Assembly: GCA_012295275.1 (NCBI GenBank)
Contig: CM022667.1
Location: 8,494,001 to 8,558,000 of the forward strand
Direction: 5' to 3'
From: Chrysomallon squamiferum
Taxonomy: Eukaryota; Animalia; Mollusca
Length of the DNA stretch: 64,000 nt
Positions 59,801-63,897 of the stretch are shown here, in pieces (position 1 is the first letter of the stretch; each line of letters starts with the position of its first letter). The notes below the pieces were generated by a model. The model was not told the DNA's origin. It did no database searches and worked only from the letters and a program-made list of their open reading frames with translations. The position numbers were made by a program, and so were the translations under genes.

Positions 59801-62800
59801 GCCCTGAAAAGGAAGCTGCTAACAACCAAAGCATTCAGTGACTGTTCTCACTAGTTTTAGTTCAGCTGATGTGAAGGGAAATAACTCTAGATTAACAGTT
59901 CCAGAGACAATGTAACTTAGGGAATTTTCATTAGTAATTTTGGCAATTTTGTATTCTAAGGAATTTTTAAACTTGTATTTTAGGGAATTCTTATTTTCTA
60001 GGATTTAAACTGCTTTGTTTGCCTTGGCGTAGACTAATTAGAAAATTTCGTCAGTAACAAATTACTAAAACATGTTTCAAAAAGACAACAAAAGAACAAA
60101 TTATTTTTAAAAATACGATTTTGTGTCTTTTCATGTAACAGGTCATGTGACTGTGTTTTATTTAAATATTAACTAATAATTGTTGTAAATGTAAGTTAAT
60201 GAATAAATAAGGAAATAGTAGAAAAGATTAAAATTGCCAAATATATGTATTATACAGAGATATGCATTCACAAACATAAACACAATTCATTCATGCATGC
60301 ACATACACACACACACACACACACACACACGCACGCACACACACACATACAGAGACACACATACACACACATACACAGACACAGACACAAACACACAATT
60401 TCTTTCACAGAAATATAGCAGTAATTAGAAACAAAAGATTTGTAAATAAAATAAATACAGCACTGCTTTTCTGAGATAATTAATGTATTTTCTCTCACAG
60501 TGATTTGTTCAAAATCTTATTACAGTTCATGTTCTGATGTTTTGTTTATTTATTAACATGCATGATTTGTTTTCCATTAGTTTTATTATTTGGATTCTGG
60601 TGCTTCACTAACACAAATAATTATTATTTATGGCCTGCTTGGTTGCTATGAGAAATGTTTGAAAACTGGAAATCACAAAATTATTTTGATGTTTAGACTG
60701 TTTGATGTTATAGACATACTTTTCTTATTTAAAAAGATAAGGAAAATGTTCTTCATTTAAAAAACACTCAGTACACAAAAAAAATAGATGAACAAATATC
60801 TAAATAACTGACATTTGATTGTAAATATTTTTATTAAAATTAGCACTAATTCAAGAAAGAAAAACAGAAAATGATATTCTTTCTTTCATTTTTTTATAGG
60901 AAATAATAACATAATAACACATACTCAAATAATTTAAAGTTATAAATGAATAGCTGAATAAGTATTACAAAAATAAAGAAAAACCCAAAGTATAAGCTAT
61001 AATTAATTTATTGTCAAGAGTTACTGCCCTTTGATTTTTTTTAGTTTTTTTTATTCATTTTTTTTATTCATTTTTTATTTATTTATTTATTTATTTATTT
61101 ATTTATTTTATTCATTTTTTTTTTTCTTAAGTAACTTTATTTTATTTTATTTATATTTTATGTAAAAGTAACTGTCAGAGTTATTGCCCTTTAGGCTAAA
61201 GGTCTGTTGTCGATGACGGATGTTGTTATGAAGCAAGGTGATGTTGATGTTCCATTGCTTTTTGCCAGAGGTGGTGGAGATATGATGATGATGGCCCCAG
61301 TAGAAATGCAGGACACTAATGGTAAGTGCAGCTGGCAGGTTGTCATGGCAATGTAGGTTTGTGGTGGCAGTAACTAATCCCATGATCTCTTCATTTTTGC
61401 TGAGCATGCTGGGTAACACTCATGAAATGGGGGCAGACATCACTACCAAATTAAAAATCTTTGACGTCCATGTTTTGCTATGCTGGAGGTCAAAGGTCGT
61501 TTTAGCTGTTGCTGTTCTTAGTGTGGGTTTGATGTCCAGCTGGTAAGTTTTTTAGTGGACGTGGGTGTTCAGTGTACTAAGATGACCAGTGGTCAGTTAA
61601 CTTATCTGTTTGAAAGCTGACCTGTCCATCTCTTCACTGATGTTTGAATGTTTTTTTCTGTGGTTTGTCAACTGTTTTATTTTAGTGGATAATGACTTTT
61701 TTTTTTTTTAAATATCAGTGGTTAGTTAATTGTTTTATTTTATGGTTAATTATTTAGTTAATGACAAATGTTTTATTTTTATTTTTTATTTATTTATTTA
61801 TTTATTTATTTATTTATTTATTTGTTTATTTATTTAGTTATATTATTTATTTGTTTATTCTACTTGTCAGTATAGTTAATATCATCATTGTCATTTTCAT
61901 ATGATTCCATTTTGATGGCTTCACAGAATTCATGACATTTGTTAAGAAAATTTACTGGAATAATCACACTTGAACTGTCTGTTGTTAAACACTGGAAAAA
62001 CAATTTTAGATGAAATGCTTTGACGATAGAAACAAAAATAAACAACAAAAACAAAAAACTTGTGATTTTGTTTTCATTATTTTGAAGCAAGTTATTTATT
62101 TTGTCTGTTTTAACAGCTGTAACATCTGATATTATTTATTTATTAACATGTGTATATATTTACATAAACATTTCTGTATCTATGCACATAACACATCATA
62201 TAGTCTCCATAACTATTCAGTACAGTTGTAACACTTTTCTGTTAGTTCTAACATACGTTTAAAACTTCACCTTAGTTACCACTGGCAACAGCTGTTTTTT
62301 ATTATTGTTGTTATTATTTTATTGTGTTTTATTATTATTATTATCAAAAAAAAAAAAAATTGAAACTGTTTAACAACTGAGTGAGTTGTGGCCCTTTAGG
62401 AAGTTGGTGTACTGGCGATGACAGATGCAAACTTGAACACTTTTGACGAGGAAATATTCAACAAGGGAGGTGGTATAGTTCTTGAAGGGAAGCCTGTTGA
62501 TGACAGTAAGTTGCCTGTTGATGACAGTGAGTTGACTGTTGATGACAGTGAGTTGCCTGTTGATGACAGTAAGTTGACTGTTGATGACAGTGAGTTGACT
62601 GTTGATAGTAAGTTGCCTGTTGATGACAGTAAGTTGCCTGTTGATGACGGTAAGTTGCCTGTTGATGACAGTGAGTTGACTGTTGATAGTGAGTTGACTG
62701 TTGATAGTAAGTTGCCTGTTGATGACAGTAAGTTGACTGTTGATGACAGTGAGTTGACTGTTGATGACAGTAAGTTGCCTGTTGATGACAGTAAGTTGCT

Positions 62801-63897
62801 TGTTGATGACGGTAAGTTGACTGTTGATGATAGTACATTAACTGTTATGATAGTAAGTTGACTGTTGATGACAGTGAGTTGACTGTTGATGATAGTACAT
62901 TAACTGTTATGATTGTAAGTTGACTGTTGATGATAGTACATTAACTGTTATGATAGTAAGTTGACTGTTGATGACAGTAAGTTGACTGTTGATGATAGTA
63001 CATTAACTGTTATGATAGTAAGTTGACTGTTGATGATAGTACATTAACTGTTATGATAGTAAGTTGACTGTTGATGACAGTAAGTTGACTGTTGATGATA
63101 GTGAGTTGACTGTAGTAAACTCTAGTATAGACTGTTGTCATAACAGGTTGTCTAATTTGTAAATAACTCAGAAGAAAGTCCACACTGAAAGTGTTTGTAT
63201 GAGTTGGTGGGTGTGGATGGGTGTAGCCGGGCATGTGGGTGTGTATGTGCTTTTTGTTTGATGCTGTTATCTGTTTTATGTGGTAACTCTTGCATTCCTA
63301 AATATCTATGTTATTTATTTATTTATTTATTTTAATGTTGCTCTCTTGTGTTTATGTCTTTCTCAGTTTTTGTTTCCTCATGTGACATGTTGTATAACAA
63401 AAATCAACTTGTAACAACAAGAAGAATGATGTCTTTTTTCCACTAAAAACTCGTAGTTACTGCTGTCTCAGCTACGATTTCTCTGCTTGCTCCTGTAGTA
63501 AAATCTGGTGTCATCTTGTATTTCTGATCATTTCTCAGTTTACAGACTCCACAGGACTTCACTGTGTAGTTTCATTCCATCAACAGAATCTCTAACACTT
63601 CCCCACCTTCAGCTTTCCCATGTAGACACTTCAGCTAGTCAGCTAGAGGCTACCTCATCAACATCATCAGCATCATTTTATGTTATAATTTTTTTTTTTG
63701 TGGGGGGGGTCCTGCAGAAAAACAAAAAACTATTTCTGAAGCAGTAACTTCAGTAATAGGTGGTGAACATGATGAACATCTGTGTTTAGCTGTTGTTTTT
63801 AATTAACTTGGTTTTGTCCCCTTTTCTGATCTTGACACAGCAGAACAAATTCCAAAACCCAGTCCACGAACATCACAAATAATTTATTTCTGTTTAT
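47833..63897 (+). CDS. CD109: CD109-like thioester-containing protein (TEP / alpha-2-macroglobulin family), 5' half; gene continues beyond the window
   Basis: Signal peptide MSSLWTLILLVTVASINHVNG. Exons: 47833-47894, 48173-48330, 48936-48961, 50977-51130, 51550-51623, 52144-52195, 52877-52950, 53400-53439, 53954-54041, 54411-54474, 54903-55151, 55566-55757, 56037-56144, 56427-56498, 57363-57562, 58091-58240, 58757-58894, then 61195-61321 or 62400-62505, possibly 63841-63897. Family motifs: YLVLAPKLFRPG, IQLDKAIYKP, PPLGEWKI, YVLPRFEV, YTYGKPVQG, MAPKATLIVY, EVVADSL, LAVDQSVLLL..GNDIT. The GCGEQ thioester motif is not in the window and exact CD109 orthology is not shown. One -1 indel at ~57507. 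Confidence 0.92.
48028..48140. repeat. (GA)n microsatellite, representative of many
   Basis: Other microsatellites include (GT)n 7893 and 22565, (GAT)n 32394 and 38490, (ATT)n 26262, 53048 and 55280, (CA)n 53535, (GA)n 54520 and 59520, (CT)n 58322. Confidence 0.95.
50500..50550. mobile_element. Possible short SINE fragment
   Basis: cagtcatggagcactggctggaactgaaaatag resembles, from memory only, an abundant gastropod tRNA-derived SINE segment. Not verifiable here. Confidence 0.25.
51920..52112. repeat. 21-bp minisatellite (catacatgtgtagactgtgtt), about 9 copies
   Basis: Direct tandem units in a TEP intron. Confidence 0.9.
52350..52515. repeat. 24-bp minisatellite (acaaactgtttctgatgtgttctt)
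   Basis: Direct tandem units in a TEP intron. Confidence 0.9.
55800..56030. repeat. 22-23-bp AT-rich minisatellite (gtgttaatttaaataatttttac), about 10 copies
   Basis: Tandem units that run up to the acceptor at 56035. Confidence 0.9.
56540..56985. repeat. ~45-bp minisatellite (tattgttaaataactcatattgttaaaaatacacatcatttctag), about 10 copies
   Basis: Direct tandem units with 2-3 nt length variants. Confidence 0.92.
61195..61321 (+). CDS. TEP bait-region alternative exon A (mutually exclusive)
   Basis: gccctttag|AKGLLSMTDVVMKQGDVDVPLLFARGGGDMMMMAPVEMQDTN|gtaagt; phase 0 to 1. Confidence 0.85.
62400..62505 (+). CDS. TEP bait-region alternative exon B (mutually exclusive; shortest form)
   Basis: gccctttag|EVGVLAMTDANLNTFDEEIFNKGGGIVLEGKPVDD|gtaagt; phase 0 to 1; paralogous to exon A (G-L/V-L-x-MTD ... 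GGG). Confidence 0.85.
62492..63113 (+). repeat. 21-bp minisatellite (with 18- and 20-bp variants) whose unit spans the exon B 5' splice site
   Basis: Unit g(c/a)ctgttgatgaca|gt(a/g)agtt; the frame stays open to the stop at 62861. Confidence 0.95.

Follow-up and report, generated by a model that had tools for sequence, protein, structure and literature searches.

A splice-donor minisatellite at a predicted variable-region exon of a CD109-like TEP gene in the scaly-foot snail Chrysomallon squamiferum

A 30-unit tandem array that reiterates the predicted donor of an alternative exon was identified by unit parsing at 62492-63113 of the analysed window, a 64,000-nucleotide stretch of Chrysomallon squamiferum contig CM022667.1 (positions 8,494,001 to 8,558,000; all features below lie on its + strand). 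The array fits the class of junction-spanning donor minisatellites, with a first unit that spans the predicted exon boundary and with intact reiterated donors. It is probably a neutral intronic junction minisatellite, in which splicing would take the donor at 62506 and leave the other 24 donor copies mostly silent. Only its setting in a TEP gene appears to be new.

By homology, the host gene is a gastropod CD109-like TEP. It shares 77% identity with a Gigantopelta CD109-like protein, and collinear exons match residues 14-640 of the Gigantopelta CD109-like protein P0001 (tblastn). The upstream constant exons (48144..58240; tblastn) run from the N-terminal MG domains to A2M_BRD, and 58094-58240 matched PF07703 in Pfam at 23.5 bits against a cut-off of 22.7. 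The gene leaves the window before its thioester exon; the CGEQ thioester motif is present in the ortholog P0001. The constant exon before the variable cassette (VKKEIEKF...STGALIK, phase 0 end) lies at 58757..58894 and matches P0001 residues 589-640 by tblastn; its last 25 nt are joined to alternative exon A in an RNA contig of run X2. Exon A (61195..61321; 127 nt, phase 0 to 1, 42 codons plus 1 nt), delimited by RNA contigs, is spliced at its 5' side in X2 and at its 3' side in X1 and X2, where its partner is an exon outside the window and exon B is skipped. It begins AKGLLSMTD, resembling the orthologous alternative exons. Exon B, predicted by homology at 62400..62505 up to donor 1 (106 nt, phase 0 to 1, 35 codons plus 1 nt), has the acceptor context and phases of exon A, is similar to it in DNA sequence and carries the motif GVLAMTDA. 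Exons A and B are tandem paralogs, both of asymmetric phase 0 to 1, and the variable region likely has at least two mutually exclusive exons, exon B among them. Its phases, length and homology point to 62506 as its true donor. Candidate docking/selector RNA pairings before acceptors A and B (-22.0 and -22.5 kcal/mol) were rejected, since 2 of 20 shuffles for A and 9 of 20 for B paired equally well or better.

Tandem, mutually exclusive alternative exons whose start is conserved and whose remainder varies occupy the same position in the CD109-like isoforms XP_041375992-998 of Gigantopelta aegis and, according to the accessible part of PMC7016707, in BgTEP2 (12 exons) and BgCD109 of Biomphalaria and, as cited there, in scallop CfTEP and Drosophila Tep2. 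These comparisons bear out a sequence-only reading that had assigned the gene to the TEPs and the array to their alternatively spliced variable region. By analogy of position, the segment may be the protease-cleaved bait (PMC7016707). The other TEPs described there draw their diversity from exon choice; the snail gene has an added donor repeat.

Tandem Repeats Finder (TRF) returned a period of 21, 30.2 copies and a score of 820 for the array, and a GTRAGT or GTRAG donor is kept in 25 of its 30 units. Unit 1 consists of the last 13 nt of exon B followed by 8 nt starting at the GT at 62506. Units 1-16 (62492..62819), 13 of which are 21 nt and three 18 nt long, follow this pattern, with GTRAGTTG coming after the copied end of exon B, and each contains GTAAGT or GTGAGT. 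The 16 in-frame donors, all sharing the phase of donor 1, extend over 306 nt or 102 codons from 62506 to 62812. From 62400 the frame of exon B is open for 153 codons, through units 1-17, up to its first in-frame stop, a TGA at 62859-62861. If translated, units 1-16 would read (P/T/L)VD(D)(S/G)(K/E)L; Pfam matches to the translated repeat were rejected, all lying below their cut-offs (Lysostaphin_N at 32.4 bits against 60, and others). The A/G variation at +3 among these units stays within the donor consensus. Units 17-30 (62820..63113) consist largely of a 41-nt dimer, a donor-less 21-mer plus a 20-mer, in five copies; because the dimer as a whole was amplified five times, the frame-breaking part would go back to one event. 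In all, 12 distinct unit types are arranged in ordered blocks. Copies of the unit were absent from the rest of the 64-kb window at up to 5 mismatches, which gives no hint that a mobile repeat had inserted here.

Most of what the sequence-only reading had described in the array was reproduced here. The repeat unit is the predicted exon B/intron junction in tandem; a recount agreed on 16 stop-free units of 21 or 18 nt with same-phase donors, and donors 2-16 would add in-frame sequence of up to 306 nt. The reading had also placed a 20-nt unit and then a stop directly beyond unit 16. The stop was found, but unit 17 is still 21 nt long and in frame, having lost its donor (GTACAT), and it is unit 18 that has 20 nt. 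As proposed, the nine further GTRAG donors beyond unit 16 are non-productive; even those at 62956 and 62977, which regain the phase, lie behind the stop. The better U1 match claimed for two distal donors, donor 8 (62647..62655, ACG/GTAAGT, GT at 62650) and donor 16 (62809..62817, ACG/GTAAGT, GT at 62812), was likewise recovered: their duplexes with the U1 5' end reach -9.3 kcal/mol against -5.6 or -5.7 for the other 14 in-frame donors, as computed in ViennaRNA with an unmodified U1 motif, a rough stand-in for a MaxEnt-type score.

Donor-repeating junction minisatellites are a described class, represented by human F7, 6-16 and CBS (PMC1557585) and by the amphioxus 'mirages' (PMC3087553). The sequence-only reading did not recognise this class. 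Its remark that it knew of no such mechanism in a TEP appears to hold: our literature search found no report of a TEP variable region lengthened by a donor repeat, and the accessible part of PMC10078293 contains nothing on donor-repeating units. The 37-bp VNTR of F7 intron 7 (Borensztajn et al. 2006, PMC1557585) likewise has a boundary-spanning first unit and intact donor copies in the intron. Its unit is not a multiple of three, occurs in 5-9 identical copies and adjoins a constitutive exon, whereas the snail units are 3n and stop-free sixteen times over at a predicted alternative exon; unlike the F7 array, the snail array also has two stronger distal donors. The amphioxus mirages (Adh3 and the globins BflGb6 and BflGb9; Ebner et al. 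2010, PMC3087553) are invertebrate boundary duplications with unit turnover and with unit types in blocks, as in the snail. They are reported to leave splicing undisturbed, and the accessible part of that paper mentions no ladder of in-frame donors at a variable exon of an immune gene. Two further human arrays are cited in PMC1557585: that of 6-16 (IFI6) intron 2 (Turri et al. 1995), with 25 pseudo-sites, and the 31-bp VNTR of CBS intron 13, with 15-20 units; two extra donors are used in each. Use of extra donors has been demonstrated in both genes, whereas the snail array, within a TEP variable region, is known from its sequence. The 6-16 unit is reportedly 12 nt long and lengthens the protein by 4 or 8 residues without shifting the frame.

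In the reading we favour, that of a neutral minisatellite with a dominant first donor, the array would have arisen by tandem copying of 21 bases around the likely exon B donor, through slippage or unequal crossing-over. Exon definition would pick the most upstream donor, by analogy with human F7, where use of the first donor has been demonstrated, and exon B would yield a normal 35-codon segment. Slight use of donors 2-3 would be tolerable, as its product stays in frame within a length-variable loop, and such tolerance would leave selection for purging donor copies weak.

Several observations are consistent with this reading. All 15 orthologous isoform-specific segments (5 from Gigantopelta, 6 from Haliotis rufescens and 4 from H. 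asinina) span 29-41 residues, a set that excludes four fish A2M matches, P0018, which is a single model, and the cluster of ovostatin-like paralogs P0009/22/23, whose segments have 54-58 residues. Exon B falls within that range when ended at donor 1 (35 codons); donors 2, 3, 8 and 16 would give 42, 49, 83 and 137 codons, respectively. Neither a tandem repeat nor a donor ladder was found in any of the 15 segments. Among the documented human arrays, donor 1 alone is used in F7, LAMIN B2 and PDGF and donors 1-3 in 6-16 and CBS; two of the five cases thus use two extra donors, and in the accessible part of the paper no array uses more than three (PMC1557585). Stop-free 3n units also arise readily by chance. 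Of 20580 hypothetical units of 12-60 nt placed across the junctions at 15 of the gene's donors, 4253 were of this kind; at phase-1 donors the share was about a quarter (1761 of 6860). Four substitutions occur among units 1-16: each is non-synonymous (a probability of 0.41 under neutrality) and each spares the donor (0.26 under neutrality). The way the units vary gives no hint of selection, and the retention of frame and donor is within chance. In addition, introns of this gene within 12 kb contain four other minisatellites.

Other observations point away from exclusive use of donor 1. In U1 pairing, donor 1 (ACA/GTAAGT, -5.6 kcal/mol) has no advantage over its copies; two of these, donors 8 and 16, exceed it by 3.7 kcal/mol. 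The junction residue, as read here, is Gly in 13 of the 15 orthologous exons (Ser and Arg occur once each); since a junction Gly needs G at -1, this fits donors 8 and 16 and not donor 1. In F7, a perfect downstream site captured 70-90% of splicing (PMC1557585). The precedents are all from chordates and none from a mollusc, the exon length at donor 2 equals that of exon A, and frame and donor are intact throughout the 16 proximal units, breaks occurring only at the distal end.

It is possible, though unlikely, that donor 1 and a few others (donors 2-3, or 8 and 16) are used at measurable levels, as in 6-16 and CBS. Exon B isoforms would then carry 7, 14, 48 or 102 additional residues of acidic repeat, as a by-product that is perhaps tolerated rather than an evolved 16-step dial. 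The two human genes with extra donors in use and the better U1 pairing of donors 8 and 16 favour this, as do the 3n stop-free units, whose products would escape nonsense decay, and a variable region that tolerates length differences among orthologs. However, F7 minigenes held to the most upstream site when downstream sites were raised to a consensus value of 91, which failed to compete, and use of more distant donors fell with distance (PMC1557585); none of the 15 orthologous isoforms exceeds 41 residues. The broader proposition, that several in-frame donors including 62650 and 62812 are used to give exon B isoforms with 0 to 102 added acidic-repeat residues, in a family varying between alleles, seems doubtful. 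If true, TEPs would be diversified at a second level besides the choice among mutually exclusive exons, and this, as far as our literature search reached, would apparently be the first TEP variable region lengthened by a splice-donor repeat. As most likely read, the array is a further example of a known repeat type and of modest interest. Its in-frame copies, its two stronger distal donors and its place at an alternative exon of an immune variable region make it a slightly better test case than most, namely of whether the mammalian first-donor rule holds in a mollusc.

Public runs, four RNA runs of one study and one DNA-like run, were compared as contigs. Exon A was spliced in two of the four RNA runs. 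Splicing of exon B at its acceptor or at any donor was seen in none of the four, but rare forms are lost from contigs and some records were filtered out, so absence should not be read from this result. The array target in the comparison consisted of stretches ending at 62530 and 62560, its first 39 and 69 nt only. No loose end leading into the next exon was present in the five displayed RNA contigs that carry array sequence, three of which ran 26, 6 and 97 letters past the end of the comparison; the display lacked 12 and 3 pieces and two loose ends, and the array-bearing RNA pieces were not placeable on particular units. The exon B protein had no match among 1.84 billion representatives and none among four candidates of a word search, an uninformative result because the species' own TEP was also missing from the protein homology matches. 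A 27-mer of exon B had no match in metagenome contigs.

These data also bear on whether exon B is used at all. It might be included rarely or never and be decaying, with sister exons supplying the function; exon definition would suffer from its weak donor (A at -1) and from competition by the 24 U1 sites that follow. We regard this as improbable. Exon A splices past exon B, the sole RNA contig over exon B (X1) is unspliced across the acceptor at a depth of 5.6, near the 2.7-4.3 of intron contigs, and all three differences that X5 has in exon B change the amino acid (N>H, K>R, I>V), compared with two of five in exon A across runs. Yet the frame, acceptor and GxLxMTD motif of exon B are intact, a hypervariable exon is expected to change non-synonymously, and the numbers involved are very small. 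In snail TEPs, alternative exons are tissue-restricted, and transcriptomes did not yield all of them (PMC7016707).

The sequence-only reading had gone further and proposed the 16 donors as a working ladder of bait lengths. That most or all of them are used and selected, with copy-number alleles altering the repertoire, is very improbable, even though 16 consecutive units hold frame and donor, with +3 varying only within the consensus, at a known diversified TEP region. The precedents employ few donors, frame and donor retention can be had by chance, selection has left no sign, and no exon B donor was seen in the RNA contigs; near-identical units would, besides, add length and little new cleavage specificity. 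That the array is an assembly artefact, a possibility raised with the original reading, can be practically dismissed: although no contig piece spans it and its copy number comes from the assembly alone, its unit types lie in ordered blocks, an X5 contig links unique exon B sequence to its first 30 nt, X1 contigs link its end to the intron at 63114, and summed depth in X5 rises from 43.8 on exon B to 767.6 where the array begins. X5 shows the array to be present on another haplotype, its length being collapsed in short-read contigs.

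The exon at 58094-58240 matched Pfam A2M_BRD and was 77% identical to a Gigantopelta aegis CD109 antigen-like protein (one match among 47 candidates), residues 14-640 of which mapped exon by exon onto 48144-58900. The CD109-like gene passes the window end before the thioester. Orthologous isoforms (five from Gigantopelta, six from Haliotis rufescens and four from H. asinina) varied only in a segment of 29-41 residues located exactly here, and together these matches bore out the assignment to a TEP variable region made in the sequence-only reading. Two alternative exons were found within the window, exon A (61195-61321) and the putative exon B (62400-62505), versus four to six in the orthologs; additional ones, together with the next constant exon, are probably located beyond the window end at 64000. 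Both run from phase 0 to phase 1 and share their acceptor context and a GLLxMTD-like start motif, a mutually exclusive layout in which a transcript keeps its frame with just one of the two. Intron sequence before the acceptors is also common to both (61160-61215 and 62365-62420), which, with the shared exon start, shows that they arose by tandem duplication. Docking-site pairing before the two acceptors did not rise above shuffles. Exon A was spliced in RNA contigs from public runs: a contig of run X2 linked it to the constant exon before it, and contigs of runs X1 and X2 linked it to an exon absent from the window, so that exon B was skipped. Excerpts of PMC7016707 describe cassettes of this kind in Biomphalaria TEP2 and CD109, scallop TEP and Drosophila Tep2.

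Tandem-repeat detection across the window returned a minisatellite of period 21 and 30.2 copies at 62494-63113, where the array copying the exon B/intron junction had been placed. Divided into units, the array contained 30 copies of 12 types, with GTRAG present in 25. In each of units 1-16, which measure 21 or 18 nt, GTAAGT or GTGAGT keeps the donor 1 phase, the donors spanning 306 nt from 62506 to 62812 as claimed; the frame from 62400 is open for 153 codons and ends at the claimed stop, TGA 62859-62861. A 20-bp unit was said to follow the 16 donor units; it exists, but the first 20-mer is unit 18, after unit 17, which keeps the frame and has lost its donor. The distal, frame-breaking half is a dimer of a donor-less 21-mer and a 20-mer, amplified five times. 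The distal frame breaks are therefore a single event, and the 5'/3' polarity of the array is no statistical evidence of selection.

We consider it fairly probable that local slippage copied the exon B junction into a neutral array, that exon B would be spliced in from its native donor at 62506, and that this first donor would dominate over the array copies. Exon B would comprise 35 codons with donor 1, 42 with donor 2, 49 with donor 3, 83 with donor 8 and 137 with donor 16; the donor 1 product falls inside the orthologous range, the donor 2 product equals exon A in length, and none of the 15 orthologous isoforms contained repeats. Against dominance of the first donor, donor 1 is no stronger than its copies. 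Donors 8 (62650) and 16 (62812) have G at -1 and, as anticipated, a better U1 match: the duplex energy, calculated with an unmodified U1 5' motif, is -9.3 kcal/mol for these two and -5.6 or -5.7 for the 14 remaining in-frame donors. The G at -1 that sets donors 8 and 16 apart from donor 1 was also present, by our reading of the junction residue, in 13 of the 15 orthologous exons (Ser and Arg once each in the others).

Minisatellites whose first unit lies across an exon-intron boundary are an already described class, according to excerpts of PMC1557585. The same excerpts report that the first donor alone is used in human F7, LAMIN B2 and PDGF, and cite the use of two further donors in 6-16 (25 pseudo-sites) and CBS. 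In F7 minigenes, downstream sites up to a consensus value of 91 took no splicing, but perfect downstream sites captured 70-90% of it (PMC1557585, in part), which speaks against the first-donor reading. Amphioxus mirages, the invertebrate equivalent, are reported as without effect on splicing in an excerpt of PMC3087553. Both structural features of these arrays recur in the TEP array, which may work as the F7, 6-16 and mirage arrays do.

A short leak ladder, in which some later in-frame donors are used, is a doubtful alternative; such in-frame leak would escape nonsense decay and would fall in a length-tolerant loop. A multi-donor ladder in a TEP variable exon is unlikely. Searches of the open-access literature gave no report of a donor-repeating array in such an exon, in agreement with the lack of precedent noted earlier.

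Silencing of exon B is likewise unlikely. Exon B was covered in one of four RNA runs, by one contig that crossed the acceptor unspliced, and no join to the next exon was found in the five listed array-bearing RNA contigs, parts of three of which lie beyond the examined stretch; these contigs stem from a single study and do not establish absence. Exon B found no match in protein searches, which were uninformative, since the TEP of Chrysomallon squamiferum was not in evidence in the database. Among differences in other individuals, all three in exon B in run X5 (62460, 62464 and 62475) were non-synonymous, versus two of five in exon A (61254-61312; runs X1, X2, X4 and X5), a pattern that fits diversification or decay alike, the counts being too few to decide. 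A donor-like GTGAGT motif lies at 62378-62386, within the acceptor region 19 nt upstream of the exon B start, has no counterpart in exon A, and could affect exon B inclusion. At 63841-63897, a 57-nt exon-like stretch has a pyrimidine-rich CAG acceptor (tandem CAGCAG), a frame open from phase 1 to phase 1, and GTAAGT as its donor; exon A transcripts skipped it.

That all or most of the 16 donors serve as a selected dial of bait length, as the sequence-only reading proposed, is very unlikely. Chance was modeled with 15 donors of the CD109-like gene, located automatically and a few possibly misplaced or mis-phased, and all junction-spanning units of 12-60 nt: 4253 of 20580 hypothetical units (21%) were both 3n in length and stop-free, as were 1761 of 6860 (26%) at phase-1 donors, or 74% of the 3n units there. 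The four substitutions in units 1-16 are all non-synonymous (neutral probability 0.41) and all preserve the donor (neutral probability 0.26).

An assembly artefact is scarcely conceivable, as both array ends are anchored to flanking sequence, the start to exon B in an X5 contig (summed depth 767.6 at the array start versus 43.8 on exon B) and the end to the following intron in an X1 contig.

Introns of the CD109-like gene hold four other minisatellites, at 51918-52113, 52346-52532, 55801-56032 and 56549-56984 (units of 21, 24, 23 and 45 nt, respectively), 4-150 nt from exon edges and all free of GTRAG. The repeat at 55801-56032 is AT-rich and reaches right to an acceptor, ending 4 nt away. A large 45-nt minisatellite of about 36 copies with higher-order structure occupies 308-1854.
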